Positions 8,178-45,049 of a stretch of 64,000 bases of DNA are shown here, piece by piece. How positions within the stretch are numbered: the first letter of the stretch is position 1; each line of letters opens with the position of its first letter. The stretch lies in sequence record LC494302.1. One strand, written 5' to 3'. The translations under genes and the position numbers were made by a program. Source of the DNA: Escherichia phage SP27. The notes below the pieces were generated by a model, which had not been told where the DNA came from, did no database searches, and was given only the letters and a program-made list of their open reading frames with translations.

Positions 8178-8513
<336 letters not shown>

Positions 8514-8514
8514 A

Positions 8515-8697
8515 ATGACACACGAAGAATGGATGTCCAAACAGCATAAAGAACATGACTGCTTTGGGAATGGCATTCGTCAGGTACATTATGATATATT
8601 AAGAGATGAAAATCTTTTCAGGTCATATGTTTTGGATACCAGAAAACCCTGGTTTATATGCGAACTGGCATTTAGAAAGTCAAATAATCAAAACTAA
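8515..8697 (+). CDS. MTHEEWM-family small protein
   Basis: Starts MTHEEWM, paralog. Confidence 0.45.
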   Translation: MTHEEWMSKQHKEHDCFGNGIRQVHYDILRDENLFRSYVLDTRKPWFICELAFRKSNNQN

Positions 8698-8713
8698 ACA
8701 AGGAATACAAAAA

Positions 8714-8932
8714 ATGGAAACAACTTTATTTGAAGTTATTCAATCATTAAAACCTGAAGATGAGGTTCAAGTACTACTACATGGTTATCGTGTAAAAGGT
8801 ACTGTGGTTTTAGTCAATGATACAACATTGGTTATTACAGAAACAAACCCATATGATAGTAATCAACTTGCCAATATCCATATCGATATCACTGGAATTA
8901 TTGGTGTCGGTGTATCTAAAACACTTGCATAA
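8714..8932 (+). CDS. hypothetical protein
   Basis: Start at METTLFE after AAGGAA RBS; 72 aa. Confidence 0.4.
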   Translation: METTLFEVIQSLKPEDEVQVLLHGYRVKGTVVLVNDTTLVITETNPYDSNQLANIHIDITGIIGVGVSKTLA

Positions 8933-8985
8933 ATCATTAATTCATTATATAATGATTATCACTGGTTCTAGATGAGGATAATATT

Positions 8986-9258
8986 ATGCATTTTGAAAAA
9001 TTCAACGTAAATCGTAACACACGCATTGAAGTTCTTTATGAAACTCAAGACACCATTAGTATTCGTACAAGTAGTGGGGATGTATATCATGACTGTACGA
9101 TTGGCTGGGAACAGGGAAGAACGCGTAGTGCAGTATTTGATAATTATCGCTTTTATCAAGGAGACACTACGATTTGGCCTGAATACGTAGAAGATATTGC
9201 GTTTGAAGATGAACATAAAGATGAATTTATCAAATTTAATCCTCAAACTGAATCATAA
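8986..9258 (+). CDS. hypothetical protein
   Basis: 90 aa, GAGGATAA RBS. Confidence 0.4.
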   Translation: MHFEKFNVNRNTRIEVLYETQDTISIRTSSGDVYHDCTIGWEQGRTRSAVFDNYRFYQGDTTIWPEYVEDIAFEDEHKDEFIKFNPQTES

Positions 9259-9275
9259 ATAATGGGACATCACAT

Positions 9276-9391
<116 letters not shown>

Positions 9392-9395
9392 AAAT

Positions 9396-9497
<102 letters not shown>

Positions 9498-9502
9498 AAA
9501 CC

Positions 9503-9663
9503 ATGACGCATGAAGAATGGATGAATGACATTAATTTTAGATATGCAGGTTTCGGTAACTGGAGAAAGTATCATTGGGAAATCATGTCAGACCCAGCAGA
9601 ATACGATAAACTTATAAACCATGAAGCGTATCCGTGGTTCTTTATTGAAATAATGGTACGAAC

Positions 9664-9667
<4 letters not shown>
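9503..9667 (+). CDS. MTHEEWM-family small protein
   Basis: 54 aa starting MTHEEWM. Confidence 0.4.
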
Positions 9668-9829
<162 letters not shown>

Positions 9830-9837
9830 AAAAAAAG

Positions 9838-10247
<410 letters not shown>

Positions 10248-10251
<4 letters not shown>

Positions 10252-10281
10252 CTAAATAATTCAGTACTGAGGATATTAATA
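10248..10281 (+). promoter_or_regulatory. promoter-like element with CAGTACTG
   Basis: TTGACTaaataatTCAGTACTGagg; weaker -10. Confidence 0.35.
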
Positions 10282-10308
10282 TGTTTAAAGATGAACGTCC
10301 AGATTTGT

Positions 10309-10356
<48 letters not shown>

Positions 10357-10379
10357 ATCAGACGTATATGGTGTAAGTT

Positions 10380-10700
10380 ACGTCGATGCAATCCAGAACA
10401 AGATCTCTGGTACTCTAGGAAGTGGTGAATGTTAACCTAGACGGGTTTGATAATTGGACGATAGGCAATTATTACTTGACTAGCAGGTTGAAACTAGAGG
10501 TGACAGTCCTTCACCAAACTGGAAAACCGGATGGACTTTTATTTAAAAGGGTAAGGCGTGGAAATATGTTTACAGAAGTTGCTTTTAGTAGCCTGTACGC
10601 CCCACGTCAAGGTAGCCGAAAGGCAAGTTAAAACGGATGGTTATAAAGCTGAATTAACAGCGGCGTTTAAAAGCGTCACCATCCATTTTTTTAATTAAAG
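10380..10700 (+). ncRNA. candidate structured RNA (unclassified)
   Basis: GC-richer ~320 bp behind a promoter, no convincing ORF, GAAA-looped hairpins (GTAGCCGAAAGGCAAGT) and GGATGG...CCATCC closing stem. Confidence 0.3.
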
Positions 10701-10708
10701 TTGGTGAT

Positions 10709-11473
<765 letters not shown>

Positions 11474-11491
11474 TTCACATGATATAGGGTG

Positions 11492-12161
<670 letters not shown>

Positions 12162-12180
12162 AGAGGTACTTCGAGTATGC

Positions 12181-12304
<124 letters not shown>

Positions 12305-12307
12305 ATA

Positions 12308-12394
<87 letters not shown>

Positions 12395-12449
12395 GACTGC
12401 CAAACAGCTTGAAGTACTTTGTAGTGCTGCACCTATGCCGACACTTGGC

Positions 12450-12550
<101 letters not shown>

Positions 12551-12562
12551 TATCTTACTTCT

Positions 12563-12652
<90 letters not shown>

Positions 12653-19243: not shown

Positions 19244-19828
19244 ATGAATGTTATTGATAATAGATTAGTACTGAAAAATGGAAAAATGACTGTTAAGTTA
19301 TATAAAGATGAAGCTGATTCTTTTATGGCAAAAGCGATTGAAAAATCAGAACGATATAAACTTTTGGCTCCAGCAAGTAAATCGCCATATGGTTTTAATC
19401 ATGCACATAGTCATTTTGTTGGTATGGTGTGTGAGCACGCATCTTTAGTACTTTTTAATGAAATTGAAAACAATACTGGTATTAAACTTAATATCGATCC
19501 AGCATTCCAAAATGAAGCACGTGACGGTGAATGTGATATTAAGGTAAACAACCTTCGTATTGAAGTAAAAGGTATCAAGTATAAATCATGGACTGACTTT
19601 GGACCATGTGTTAGTACTCGACAGTTAAAAAATATCCAGAAAAAAGCTGACGTAATACTATGGGTATTGTATAATGAGAAAAAACAAGAGTTCACGTTTG
19701 AGGGATTCAACTATGTAAAAGATATTAGTTCTATCCCAGTTATCCTCACTGGTGTACCAGGGCGACCAATGATTGAAAATCACCCAGTACTCGGTATTAT
19801 GAAACCACTACAGGAGTTACCATTGTGA
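19244..19828 (+). CDS. hypothetical protein; possible PD-(D/E)xK-like nuclease
   Basis: 194 aa; D..ECDIKV..IEVKG spacing weakly nuclease-like. Confidence 0.45.
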   Translation: MNVIDNRLVLKNGKMTVKLYKDEADSFMAKAIEKSERYKLLAPASKSPYGFNHAHSHFVGMVCEHASLVLFNEIENNTGIKLNIDPAFQNEARDGECDIKVNNLRIEVKGIKYKSWTDFGPCVSTRQLKNIQKKADVILWVLYNEKKQEFTFEGFNYVKDISSIPVILTGVPGRPMIENHPVLGIMKPLQELPL

Positions 19829-33355: not shown

Positions 33356-33390
33356 AAAGGTTGACTTCGGTCAGCCTTTTTTGTTATAAT
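33356..33390 (+). promoter_or_regulatory. PeSL-like terminator/promoter hybrid
   Basis: AAAGGTTGAC-ttcg-GTCAGCCTTTTTT; TTGACT lies in the stem, TATAAT 18 bp downstream. Confidence 0.6.
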
Positions 33391-40259: not shown

Positions 40260-40598
40260 ATGGAACAATATTTTGAATTAATAAACAAAGTATCATTTTA
40301 TGTAGTATCTTTGGTTTGGGTGTATTATATGTTTTGCTACATTATTGCATTCTTCCGATACACTACTTTATATGAACGTATCTACTATGATGCCCCAATT
40401 TCATTCTTGATGTTTTGTGCATGTACGTGGGGAATATTAGAAGTACTGATATGTGGGTATAGTACTGATGAATTAAATCTGGTATCGGTCTTGACTGGGT
40501 TTTCATTTGTTGTTATGATAGCTGCCGTTCCAGTATGGTTGTTCTTTGGACTAGTTCATCGCATTGATATATGGCGTTCTAATATCCCTGAAAAGTAA
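40260..40598 (+). CDS. small multi-TM protein, array A member 1
   Basis: 112 aa, 3-4 TM helices, basic tail RSNIPEK. Confidence 0.5.
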   Translation: MEQYFELINKVSFYVVSLVWVYYMFCYIIAFFRYTTLYERIYYDAPISFLMFCACTWGILEVLICGYSTDELNLVSVLTGFSFVVMIAAVPVWLFFGLVHRIDIWRSNIPEK

Positions 40599-40607
40599 GG
40601 ATTGGTA

Positions 40608-40949
40608 ATGATTTATTACACTAACATGTTTGCCTATGCTGTTGCTTGCATTTACATTGTTTACTTCTTATTTGGTGGAGTACTGTGCTTCTTTAAGTAC
40701 AAAACGTTGTTCAACCGAATGTACCCAAATCATCCAATTGTAGTTGTACTTTTGATTCTTTCAGTTTCTCAAATAATCGTTGAAACTACAATGGGTATCA
40801 GTAGTGTACATTATAGTTTTGGTACTATAGTAATTATTACTATGCTTATTGCATACATTTTAGTACTTGGATATGGTATCTTTGGTAATATTGGTATGAA
40901 AATGTATCATCGAATTAAAACATTACGTGATAATCTACCGGAGCGTTGA
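40608..40949 (+). CDS. small multi-TM protein, array A member 2
   Basis: Paralog; tail LRDNLPER. Confidence 0.5.
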   Translation: MIYYTNMFAYAVACIYIVYFLFGGVLCFFKYKTLFNRMYPNHPIVVVLLILSVSQIIVETTMGISSVHYSFGTIVIITMLIAYILVLGYGIFGNIGMKMYHRIKTLRDNLPER

Positions 40950-40950
40950 T

Positions 40951-41295
40951 ATGTATAATTTGAACCTAATCTCATATATTATAACAACACTGTTTACATT
41001 CTATGCCTTTGTTGGTATAATCCTACTGTACTTTAAATTTTATAAAGTGTTTAACCGTTTCTATCCTTCAATGGAGAATGAGTTTTTCTTTGTGTTGTAC
41101 GTATGTTACACATTCATGGCTACATGTTTCACTGTAGTCGATGGTGTCATCGGCATTAAAACTGCTGCACCAAATGGTAGTACGCTGGTTGCATTTATTC
41201 TTACCGGATTCCTTGCAACTTATATTGCCTTCATTGCAACATGGTCAGTGGTTGAATTTCTCTTGCGACTACGAAAGAATATGCCGAATCGATAG
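40951..41295 (+). CDS. small multi-TM protein, array A member 3
   Basis: Paralog; tail LRKNMPNR; TGATATG coupling. Confidence 0.5.
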   Translation: MYNLNLISYIITTLFTFYAFVGIILLYFKFYKVFNRFYPSMENEFFFVLYVCYTFMATCFTVVDGVIGIKTAAPNGSTLVAFILTGFLATYIAFIATWSVVEFLLRLRKNMPNR

Positions 41296-41940: not shown

Positions 41941-41969
41941 TTGACAAACACATTCAGTACTGTATAATG
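41941..41969 (+). promoter_or_regulatory. sigma70-like early promoter with CAGTACTG spacer
   Basis: TTGACA-aacacatTCAGTACTG-TATAAT. Confidence 0.55.
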
Positions 41970-42015
41970 TTTATCAAGGGGATGAACTTCTCATCCCCAC
42001 AATCGAGGAATTGTC

Positions 42016-42570
42016 ATGATTACTTTTAAGAAAACTGCTAACCACATCCATGAAATCTACATTAACGGTCACAAAGCTGGCCTTCTTCGTTTACTCGCCC
42101 ATCACCCTGATGCTACCGTATCTGATAATGAACCTAAAGATTGGCGTGTCTTTTTCTTTGGAAAGTACAGTGATTTTCAAGTATCAAACCTGAAGAACAT
42201 TCGTTCAGTATGCACGTTAACTGAAATTAAAGAAAAGTTAGCACAAGCATTGAAAACTAATCCAGATGGTGTTCTTCCACCTGATAACTTTGTAGAGAAA
42301 GGTTATGCCTTAGCTCATTTCAAAGATGGTACTATTCAATCTATCAGTACTGAATATGAATATCATTGGACTGAGTACTTCACTTATGGTTCGAGTAATA
42401 CATTGATGGATTCACGTAGTAAATTGGAAGAAGTACTGACTCGTATGAATGAACGCGAGCGTCAGTTATATGACAAACCAGAAATGTGGAGTTCAACTTA
42501 CATTGACCGTATTGACTATGTTATTATGACTCCAATCTTTGACACTGCTTACTATGATTCTTTGAAATAA
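42016..42570 (+). CDS. hypothetical protein
   Basis: 184 aa, GAGGAA RBS. Confidence 0.5.
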   Translation: MITFKKTANHIHEIYINGHKAGLLRLLAHHPDATVSDNEPKDWRVFFFGKYSDFQVSNLKNIRSVCTLTEIKEKLAQALKTNPDGVLPPDNFVEKGYALAHFKDGTIQSISTEYEYHWTEYFTYGSSNTLMDSRSKLEEVLTRMNERERQLYDKPEMWSSTYIDRIDYVIMTPIFDTAYYDSLK

Positions 42571-42581
42571 GGATAACTTAT

Positions 42582-42758
42582 ATGAAACTACGTACTCGTA
42601 ATCGACTGATGGATGCACTGTACCATGAACAGCTTTCACTGAATGAAGTGAAGCGTCAGTTAATGTACACATATCAGTTTCCCGCTCGCATTGCAAAACA
42701 ACGTGCTAAAGAATTGCTGAAAGAAGCAATAGAGTACTGGGAATCTGATTCGTACTAA
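42582..42758 (+). CDS. hypothetical small protein
   Basis: 58 aa basic ORF, AAGGATAA RBS. Confidence 0.3.
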   Translation: MKLRTRNRLMDALYHEQLSLNEVKRQLMYTYQFPARIAKQRAKELLKEAIEYWESDSY

Positions 42759-42797
42759 TATTACGTGATATGTCACGTTAATTAAGTGAGGCGATAA

Positions 42798-43049
42798 ATG
42801 AAAATATTATTAGTTCTAATACTACTAATAGTTTTACCATTTACTTTAGTATCCCCTGGACTTGCATGGAATGTATTTGTGTACTTAGTATGTACTATTG
42901 TAGTAAATGGTATCTTGTTCTTAGTTCTATTCATAAATGGAATAGGACACGGTGGAGGATGGACCAGTACTGCTGATATCGTACATAAAACCACTATGTC
43001 TTTATTTGTAATGTGGAATTTGTTCTGGACTTGGTTTGTGTTCTTCTAA
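42798..43049 (+). CDS. small membrane protein
   Basis: 83 aa, three hydrophobic helices, GTGAGGCG RBS. Confidence 0.4.
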   Translation: MKILLVLILLIVLPFTLVSPGLAWNVFVYLVCTIVVNGILFLVLFINGIGHGGGWTSTADIVHKTTMSLFVMWNLFWTWFVFF

Positions 43050-43057
43050 TTAAAAAT

Positions 43058-43429
43058 ATGAATATAGATTTGAAAGGTGCAACCCGAACTGTTATCCTCA
43101 TTGGGGAATACGCTATCAAGATTCCAACCTTCAAAAGCTGGAAGTTATTCCTAACTGGAATGATAGCTAACCTCAATGAACGTTCATGGATGCAGTACTC
43201 CAATCGTAGTGATAGTGGTATCTGCCCTACTTTGTGGTCATCATGTACAGGACTAGTAACTGTACAGAAACGTTGTAAGCCAGTTCAACATAGGGGTTTA
43301 TTTTGGGTGGAGTTGTGTGCTTTAGCATTGAATTCAGAGTTAAGTACTGACTTCTTTTATTCAGATGCGAAGCCAGAAAACTTTGGTTATCTGAATGGTA
43401 AGTTAGTTAAACTTGATTATGGAGATTAA
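43058..43429 (+). CDS. truncated eukaryotic-like protein-kinase-fold protein
   Basis: GEYAIKIP (VAIK-like), SDAKPENFG (HRDxKPEN-like), KLVKLDYG (DFG-like); ORF stops two residues after DYG. Confidence 0.5.
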   Translation: MNIDLKGATRTVILIGEYAIKIPTFKSWKLFLTGMIANLNERSWMQYSNRSDSGICPTLWSSCTGLVTVQKRCKPVQHRGLFWVELCALALNSELSTDFFYSDAKPENFGYLNGKLVKLDYGD

Positions 43430-43430
43430 G

Positions 43431-43700
43431 ATGTACGCACTGTATAATAAAGAAAAGAAACGATTTGCTAAGGTTGAAATTTCGATTGATACCTTTGATA
43501 TGTTGGAGTACTGTATTGTGACGGACCTATATGCTAACTTGTATTACGTTCTTGATGACGTATCAGTACTGCAACGATTGCTTGAGAATTCCAAAAGTCA
43601 ATGCCAGGGCATCCATGATGGTTCATCTTATGAAACACCTGAGTGTTCCTACGGCTATCTGGACGGGTATGAGATTGTGAAGTTGGGGATTGTTGAATAA
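43431..43700 (+). CDS. hypothetical protein
   Basis: 89 aa, follows kinase-like ORF. Confidence 0.4.
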   Translation: MYALYNKEKKRFAKVEISIDTFDMLEYCIVTDLYANLYYVLDDVSVLQRLLENSKSQCQGIHDGSSYETPECSYGYLDGYEIVKLGIVE

Positions 43701-43703
43701 AGA

Positions 43704-43739
43704 AAAGGGTTGACTACGGTCAGCCCTTTTTGCTATAAT
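43704..43739 (+). promoter_or_regulatory. PeSL-like terminator/promoter hybrid
   Basis: AAAAGGGTTGAC-tacg-GTCAGCCCTTTTT; TTGACT-18-TATAAT. Confidence 0.65.
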
Positions 43740-43767
43740 CATTTCATCGAAACGAGAGGATGAATAC

Positions 43768-44283
43768 ATGACACGCATTAACTTAGTACACGTTAAAGAA
43801 CTTGCTGACCAACATCTGATGGCTGAATATCGTGAACTCCCACGTGTATTTGGTGCTGTACAAAAACACGTTCAAGCACGTAAGCGTGTACGTGATTTCA
43901 AAATTAACAGTACTTATCTGTTAGGTTCAGGTCATGTGACATTCTTTTACGACAAGTTGCTGTACTTACAGAAGCGTCATATCGATATTGTTAACGAATG
44001 TTTGCGTCGTGGTATGAAGATTCAAAACACTGAAGTAAACGACATTAGCGGCTTCCCTGCTGAGTTTTGTAATGACTACGTACCAACGGAGTCAGAGATT
44101 AAAATGTCTCGTGATCGTTTGATTGAGAAGCTCCAGATGAAGCCTACGTGGTATAAGTTTACTGATGTTGAATGTCCACAGTACGTTAAAGATATGCAGA
44201 ACGTAAGTAGTAAGAACGAATCTAGTACTGATATGTTCGACGAAATTGAAGAACAAATCAAAGATGAAATGAATAATTATTAA
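43768..44283 (+). CDS. denV: endonuclease V (pyrimidine-dimer DNA glycosylase/AP lyase)
   Basis: [50 protein letters not shown] matches T4 endonuclease V as I recall it over most of its length. Confidence 0.8.
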
Positions 44284-44287
44284 AGGA

Positions 44288-44304
44288 AAGGGTTGACTTC
44301 GGTT
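44288..44304 (+). repeat. truncated PeSL remnant (5' arm only)
   Basis: AAGGGTTGACTTCGGTT then unrelated sequence. Confidence 0.45.
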
Positions 44305-44984: not shown

Positions 44985-45020
44985 TAAAGGGTTGACTTCG
45001 GTCAGCCCTTTTTGCTATAA
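44985..45020 (+). promoter_or_regulatory. PeSL-like terminator/promoter hybrid
   Basis: AAAGGGTTGAC-ttcg-GTCAGCCCTTTTT; TTGACT-18-TATAAT. Confidence 0.65.
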
Positions 45021-45049
45021 TTATTTCATCAACTGAAGAGGGTAAAGAA

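Follow-up and report, generated by a model that had tools for sequence, protein, structure and literature searches.

A predicted kinase-fold protein of 123 residues that ends at the DFG equivalent, encoded by Escherichia phage SP27, and its widespread phage family

In kinase structural biology, the catalytic machinery is understood to be built upon a hydrophobic helix F and the C-lobe, which act as its scaffold. Reduced forms of the kinase fold are already known from parasites and related systems, with the phage T7 gp0.7 kinase (T7K), OspG/NleH, HopBF1, RIO/Bud32 and ArkI as examples. The only well-studied family of phage protein kinases, T7K/JSS1_004, has recently been shown to be a broad anti-defence weapon (PMC13645617). 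The gene described here lies at nt 43058-43429 of a 64,000-nt stretch of Escherichia phage SP27 (LC494302.1; this whole stretch is called the window below) and specifies a protein of 123 amino acids (aa), the mini-kinase, which matches a different phage family, PHROG 4301. Modelling identifies this protein as the predicted nucleotide-binding and catalytic core of a protein-kinase-like (PKL) fold. On balance, family conservation and the model favour a complete, selected gene for a stand-alone 'core kinase', which would be an early, constitutively open phosphotransferase acting on a host target.

The open reading frame (ORF) begins with an ATG at 43058 and closes with a TAA stop codon (43427-43429). 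An alternative GTG start at 43013 would overlap the upstream gene, and the ATG is preferred because the N-termini of homologues align with M1. A preliminary description, made from the letters of the window, had noted VAIK-, HRDxKPEN- and DFG-like motifs in canonical order and spacing, and all three were located: the lysine K21 within GEYAIKIP (residues 16-23), D103-A-K-P-E-N108 within SDAKPENFG (residues 102-110) and D120-Y-G122 at the end of KLVKLDYG (residues 115-122), with E41 between the first two. The spacings from K21 to E41 (20 residues), D103 to N108 (5) and N108 to D120 (12) compare with 19, 5 and 13 in PKA. The same description correctly gave the activation segment and C-lobe as missing, the protein ending at residue 123, but miscounted the last residues, as a single one (D123), not two, stands between DYG and the stop. 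The full motif pattern had no match in 300 shuffles (residue-shuffled six-frame segments). Motif statistics are not relied on, because a looser regular expression gave a false positive in a real but unrelated ORF (19268-19603); motif order is weak evidence, and the case therefore rests on family conservation and predicted structure. Codon differences from close relatives show more synonymous than non-synonymous changes (17:4 and 14:2), a pattern that indicates purifying selection on the gene.

The match to PHROG 4301, a family listed as of 'unknown function', has an E value of 7.2e-44 and covers residues 2-122 of the protein and positions 40-167 of the 225 in the profile. When 1.84 billion cluster representatives were searched exhaustively with a profile, 1,206 clusters of relatives (50% identity) came up at E <= 1e-3, of which 639 also passed E <= 1e-10. 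The best 150 clusters are, with few exceptions, 110-135 aa long; a word-indexed database search gave 15 relatives of 102-127 aa. Conservation was counted in 161 sequences aligned to the family hidden Markov model, the denominators being the sequences aligned at each position. In 132 of the 161, the C-terminus falls 0-3 residues past the G of DxG. Residues G7, R10, K21, E41 and D120 are invariant, while P23, G34, N38, G65, G110, Y121 (143 sequences) and G122 (138) are nearly so, and position 9 is T or S in 149/156. Longer members occur in Kosakonia phage Kc263 (267 aa), Pseudomonas phage OBP (273 aa) and Ralstonia phage RP12 (209 aa), and among some metagenomic proteins. Their C-terminal tails are unconserved, carry no APE or helix-F-like motif and do not resemble a C-lobe, so that the domain boundary at DxG holds across the family. 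The sequences indicate that the polypeptide ends at DYG by design. Neither the mini-kinase nor up to 111 diverse relatives had a match in Pfam, NCBIfam or PADLOC, from which the family is absent; its members are currently annotated as 'hypothetical protein', and a few GenBank records name them 'serine/threonine kinase' through automatic annotation. Two queries against species-representative bacterial genomes found no relative, a weak negative given the narrowness of the back-translated patterns.

The variation that does occur at the presumptive active site is ordered. The catalytic-loop acid (position 103) is D in 103 and E in 51 family sequences, and thus acidic in 154/156, while the metal ligand (position 108) is N in 108 and S in 46. 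The two positions covary, with 101 sequences of the D..N type, 42 of the E..S type and only eight mixed. Such covariation is the pattern expected if the geometry of an active site is under selection, and may partly reflect two clades. K105 is kept in 136/157 sequences.

An AlphaFold2 model of the mini-kinase, built from a 14-sequence alignment, reached a predicted local distance difference test score (pLDDT) of 90.4 and a predicted template modelling score (pTM) of 0.79. The kinase-like fold anticipated in the preliminary description was thus predicted with high confidence. The N-lobe of the model comprises strand 1 (residues 2-4), strand 2 (10-15), strand 3 (18-23, with K21), helix C (28-43, with E41), strand 4 (58-61) and strand 5 (68-71), and is followed by a short hinge, helix E (79-92), a short helix (97-101), the catalytic loop, strands 7 and 8 (109-112 and 115-118) and DYG. 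These elements include much of what defines the PKL fold: a five-stranded antiparallel sheet with helix C, a strand-3 lysine paired with a helix-C glutamate, an acidic base with a metal-binding asparagine five residues on, and a DFG-type aspartate after strand 8. The helical C-lobe core, from helix F onward and including the spine anchor, is absent, as the chain ends one residue after DYG; missing altogether are helix D, the activation segment and helices F-I. In a Foldseek search of the PDB, the top matches were exclusively kinases or kinase-like proteins (TTK/MPS1, Lpg2603 and CK2), the best having an E value of 5e-4 and a query template-modelling score (TMq) of ~0.6, and in the BFVD database small kinase-like proteins of phages range continuously from 117 to 273 aa. 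No PDB sequence reached significance, whether the search started from the single sequence or from either of two profiles. The sub-threshold profile matches (E 0.25-0.9) were to TTK in 22 of 23 cases, and their register pairs vDaKPeNFG...iDyG with HSDLKPANF...IDFG; non-significant as the E values are, this register independently supports the motif assignment. Together with the predicted fold, it upholds the three motifs as equivalents of VAIK, the HRD loop and DFG.

If the mini-kinase is an enzyme of this kind, it would bind Mg-ATP in the cleft lined by K21, E41, N108 and D120 and transfer the gamma-phosphate using D103 and K105. With activation segment, P+1 loop and helices F-I all missing, the usual regulation and substrate selectivity would be impossible and the protein constitutively 'open'. 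It could then serve as an early accessory effector in host takeover or counter-defence, phosphorylating a target in the host, be it many proteins without discrimination or a substrate that is small or a nucleic acid, and self-association or the surface of the target would probably cover what the C-lobe normally buries. The mini-kinase may be the smallest natural kinase-fold enzyme. A natural family, large and strongly conserved, with an N-lobe, catalytic loop and DFG only would define the true minimal unit of the kinase fold, and at 14 kDa the protein would be convenient for work on catalysis in the absence of regulation. A wider proposal, put forward tentatively and given somewhat less than an even chance, is that the ~120-residue proteins of PHROG 4301 are self-sufficient active kinases that do without helix F, activation segment and C-lobe, perhaps as oligomers, and act early in many phage lineages on defence or takeover targets or on RNA/tRNA, the E...S form being a second, previously unseen catalytic solution.

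Several observations weigh against an active stand-alone kinase. Helix F, regarded as the element around which all known active protein kinases are organised, is absent here, and no active kinase of ~123 aa is known to us. The glycine-rich loop is replaced by a G-x-T-R turn (K-G-A-T-R). A third of the family has Glu for the catalytic Asp and Ser for the metal-binding Asn, which is unusual for active kinases, and K105 is lost in one sub-branch (OBP and Kc263). The kinase assignment rests on predicted structure because the link by sequence stays below significance (PDB profile E of at least 0.25), and Pfam at E <= 1 returned no match for the mini-kinase and no kinase model above noise for 111 members. 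No conserved neighbour in 23 phage groups hints at a substrate.

The most serious alternative, unlikely but with an appreciable share of the probability, is a non-catalytic pseudokinase, whose cleft would bind ATP or sequester a host signalling nucleotide, or whose fold would dock onto a host protein, to inhibit it or to act as a decoy. Nucleotide and Mg binding is the role of the residues that never vary (G7, R10, K21, E41 and D120), while the catalytic-loop positions do vary; nothing of the substrate-binding half of a kinase is present; and phages are known to counter defence with small proteins that sponge nucleotides (Tad1/2, cited in 10.1101/2025.06.06.658234). Yet position 103 has stayed acidic in all but two sequences and K105 is widely kept, and the joint switching of D/E and N/S, with so few mixed cases, is not the pattern of a decaying site. 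A kinase- or ATP-grasp-like cleft put to other chemistry, whether AMPylation or nucleotidyl transfer (SelO-type), ligation (SAICAR synthetase) or RNA/tRNA 2'-/5'-phosphorylation (ArkI), is quite improbable: both the D-x-K-x-x-N loop and the alignment register of the sub-threshold matches are of the Ser/Thr protein kinase type, RNA-related neighbourhoods were found in two of >23 contexts, and there was no sequence match to ArkI, SelO or SAICAR synthetase at E <= 10.

It is likewise improbable that the mini-kinase is half of a split enzyme, with a C-lobe supplied in trans by a phage protein, a host protein or obligate homo-oligomerisation. In its favour, helix E of the mini-kinase (GLFWVELCALAL, residues 80-91) has a strongly hydrophobic character and, with no partner to cover it, would lie exposed, and the minimal kinase OspG needs its bound host partner E2~Ub in the solved structure (4q5h). 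The gene arrangement also invites it, since the ORF that follows starts 1 nt past the mini-kinase stop and its GGAG Shine-Dalgarno sequence lies inside the end of the mini-kinase gene. The preliminary description had raised this downstream ORF as a possible complementing C-lobe, but its 89-aa product is restricted to this lineage: 5.8 billion proteins contained only six clusters of it, none from outside this phage group, and the ORF is present in 38 phage records, the mini-kinase in 119. The ORF was not found beside mini-kinase homologues in 22 other phage groups examined, its product does not resemble the C-terminal tails of the longer homologues, and its AlphaFold2 model, at an unreliable pLDDT of 46, is mostly beta rather than a helical lobe. 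Distribution, lack of co-occurrence and lack of tail similarity led to the rejection of this ORF as the other half. Among 40 loci in 23 phage groups, no conserved partner was seen beyond close relatives, denV in two groups excepted (see below), and a phage-encoded C-lobe is very unlikely because no neighbour family is common across the groups; a host-supplied partner or self-association may still play such a part. Hardly credible, finally, is the reading that a full-length kinase gene is decaying here, or that the motifs arose by chance in a non-kinase ORF. Disrupted or N-terminally truncated copies in close relatives (CMSTMSU, SD-1, SD-2 and SD-6) and the stray match of the loose regular expression speak for it, and against it stand the size of the family, its uniform length and C-terminus, the synonymous excess and the confident kinase-like model. 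With 1,206 clusters and four-fifths of the aligned sequences ending within three residues of DxG, the 'remnant' suggested in the preliminary description falls away, as do the chance motif matches that it named as a refutation, in the face of K21, E41 and D120, each without exception in the aligned sequences.

The region 42000-44300 is 98% identical to the Asteriusvirus jumbo coliphages vB_EcoM_CRJP21, G17, Sharanji and 121Q (350-370 kb). More widely, the mini-kinase is carried by myo-, sipho- and jumbo phages of Escherichia, Pseudomonas, Aeromonas, Erwinia, Ralstonia and Klebsiella, and family members occur in T4-like, rV5-like, jumbo, PaMx11-like and lambdoid phages. The homologue lies upstream of rnlB in the T4-like phage JS10, adjoins the tRNA array in Tequatrovirus G4507, sits amid small hypothetical genes in rV5-like and jumbo phages, and forms a moron between Rz and Nu1 in Salmonella lambdoid prophages. 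These contexts indicate the behaviour of a mobile accessory gene. In SP27, the gene just downstream of the mini-kinase operon is denV (T4 endonuclease V, a pyrimidine-dimer glycosylase), and in PaMx11-like Pseudomonas siphophages (loci L027, L028, L030, L031 and L033) a denV-like gene directly follows the mini-kinase homologue. This adjacency, in two unrelated groups of the 23, may be a coincidence or a small mobile module. The family expands within some jumbo phages, as shown by paralogues: Aeromonas phage PS1 carries two in tandem (119 and 121 aa; L005:1642-2366), with a third place in the genome found by tblastn, and Pectobacterium phage CBB has two small kinase-like proteins in BFVD. Elsewhere the gene is damaged. 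It is in two pieces in CMSTMSU (MH494197), is disrupted or lacks its N-terminal part in Salmonella phages SD-1, SD-2 and SD-6, and OR699181/OR699182 and SD-1_S14 are among the disrupted records. Such split and truncated copies imply that the mini-kinase is dispensable or recently lost in some Asteriusvirus-like genomes, although sequencing errors are also possible.

The mini-kinase gene is the fourth of five co-oriented, tightly packed ORFs (42016-43700; Table 1). The host-type promoter ahead of them suggests early expression of the operon, and the position in an early-type phage operon agrees with the preliminary description, for which a phage kinase would be a candidate host-takeover factor. 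Beyond the operon, a second promoter (TTGACT-18-TATAAT) drives denV, and its -35 element lies within the stem of the terminator hairpin. This junction is one of three copies of a 32-nt cassette, GGTTGACTWCGGTCAGCC(C/T)TTTTTG(C/T)TATAAT (+), where none was expected; the copy here folds at -19.8 kcal/mol (z -5.6; 43702-43731). Because the hairpin of the cassette contains the -35 of a sigma-70-type promoter, one transcription unit ends and the next starts within ~40 nt.

Table 1. Coordinates of the mini-kinase gene, its residues and operon, and other features of the window
Feature	Position	Strand	Remarks
Six tRNA genes	8200-12642	+	Gly-tcc, Ser-tga, Ser-act, Met-cat, Asn-gtt, Thr-tgt
ORF, 194 aa, phrog_16175	19244-19828	+	unknown function
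32-nt cassette, copy	33359-33390	+	
Second kinase gene, 224 aa	39240-39914	+	phrog_15752, phrog_2828
Three membrane-protein ORFs (112, 115, 122 aa)	40260-41295	+	consecutive
Sigma-70 promoter, TTGACA-16-TATAAT	41941..41968	+	12/12 consensus; heads five-ORF operon
ORF, 184 aa, phrog_22186	42016-42570	+	function unknown; same transcription unit as mini-kinase
ORF, 58 aa, phrog_38182	42582-42758	+	function unknown; same transcription unit
ORF, 83 aa	42798-43049	+	hydrophobic, membrane-like, function unknown; same transcription unit
Mini-kinase gene, PHROG 4301	43058..43429	+	predicted kinase N-lobe, helix E, catalytic loop, strands 7-8, DYG
G7-A-T9-R10 turn, strands 1/2	43076..43087	+	in place of GxGxxG loop; G7, R10 invariant
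K21, strand-3 (VAIK) lysine	43118..43120	+	invariant, 158/158
E41, helix-C glutamate	43178..43180	+	invariant, 160/160; within family signature F-L-x-G-x-x-A-N-x-x-E
Catalytic loop D103-A-K105-P-E-N108	43364..43381	+	family types D...N (101), E...S (42)
D120-Y-G122, DFG equivalent	43415..43423	+	D in 156/156; then only D123 and stop
Last ORF of operon, 89 aa, phrog_8563	43431..43700	+	lineage-restricted; not a C-lobe partner
Hairpin and T-run closing operon	43702..43739	+	-19.8 kcal/mol, z -5.6; overlaps next promoter
32-nt cassette, copy	43708-43739	+	
denV	43768-44283	+	
32-nt cassette, copy	44990-45021	+	
P-loop/AAA-type NTPase, 256 aa	45050-45820	+	phrog_1250

Some other features of the window were noted. 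The phrog_16175 ORF, a chance match to the loose kinase-motif expression, contains an ...ECD-x12-EVK segment that resembles a PD-(D/E)xK nuclease motif. Between the second kinase gene and the mini-kinase operon lie three ORFs for apparently paralogous multi-pass membrane proteins, which share the C-terminal motif ...R..N[IL/M]P[EN][KR]. The tRNA genes are ~30 kb upstream of the mini-kinase. The NTPase downstream of denV has weak Pfam matches to AAA_16 and nSTAND NTPase 5, mostly under the curated cut-offs, and one to AAA (PF00004) just above its own.

The second kinase gene of the window belongs to the T7K family. Its product matches phrog_15752 (E 1e-98) and phrog_2828 (E 9e-17) and shows similarity to T7K by tblastn (E 1.6e-6); it ends 21 residues past DPL, is without the T7 shut-off domain and corresponds to Sharanji WNN14432.1 (PMC11895373). 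It is the kind of protein noted in the T7K study as a 'jumbophage G17' homologue (PMC13645617). The mini-kinase was considered as that homologue and rejected, the homologue being this separate gene.

Among described kinases, the Hanks-type Ser/Thr enzymes (TTK/MPS1, PknB and BRAF) are the best structural matches of the mini-kinase and its sole weak sequence matches. They have in common with it the N-lobe, the Lys/Glu pair, helix E, D-x-K-x-x-N, strands 7-8 and a DFG-type Asp at the same spacing, and the loop Y101-S-D103-A-K105-P-E-N108 is of the Hanks type and includes the lysine of Ser/Thr kinases. In contrast to these enzymes of ~250-300 aa, the ~123-aa mini-kinase has no activation segment, APE motif, helices F-I, subdomains IX-XI, helix D or GxGxxG loop, and the Pkinase profile of Pfam (PF00069) had no significant match to it or to any of 111 members. 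The other minimal kinases are larger. OspG/NleH and HopBF1 keep a helical remnant of the C-lobe; RIO, Bud32 and ArkI retain C-lobe helices, and the RIO/Bud32 loops are of another type (D-L-S-E-Y-N and D-L-T-T-S-N). OspG/NleH (PDB 4q5h) and HopBF1 (PDB 6pwd), of 170-200 aa, exceed the mini-kinase by ~50 or more residues and are type III secretion effectors that act in eukaryotic cells, whereas the solved chains of RIO/Bud32 and the archaeal tRNA kinase ArkI (PDB 1zp9, 1tqi, 3en9, 7vnx and 8yv5) have 173-519 aa. No sequence similarity to the mini-kinase was found for OspG/NleH or HopBF1, nor any sequence match for RIO/Bud32 or ArkI. None of the family databases searched describes a very large natural family that stops at DFG, and a literature search, with most subscription journals outside its reach, found no paper on PHROG 4301.

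The closest functional parallel is the T7K family (PHROG 2828/15752), which like the mini-kinase is phage-encoded, early and of kinase fold, with no canonical activation segment and a very short tail after the DFG equivalent. T7K and its jumbo-phage homologue end ~20-25 residues past DPV/DPL. Phage kinases can thus do almost entirely without a post-DFG region, and one of them, T7K, is active and hyperpromiscuous as an anti-defence enzyme (PMC13645617), which makes it a functional precedent. The two families differ in much else. The T7K proteins (~210-240 aa) are about 100 residues longer and have a GxG loop, D-x-H-x-x-N, DPV/DPL, an N-terminal helical extension and a long helical insert, all absent from the mini-kinase, and a profile-profile comparison of T7K with the mini-kinase family gave no similarity (hhalign probability 2%). 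PHROG 4301 would thus be a second, unrelated and far more widely spread family of kinase-like phage proteins, and a candidate for roles in host takeover or counter-defence.
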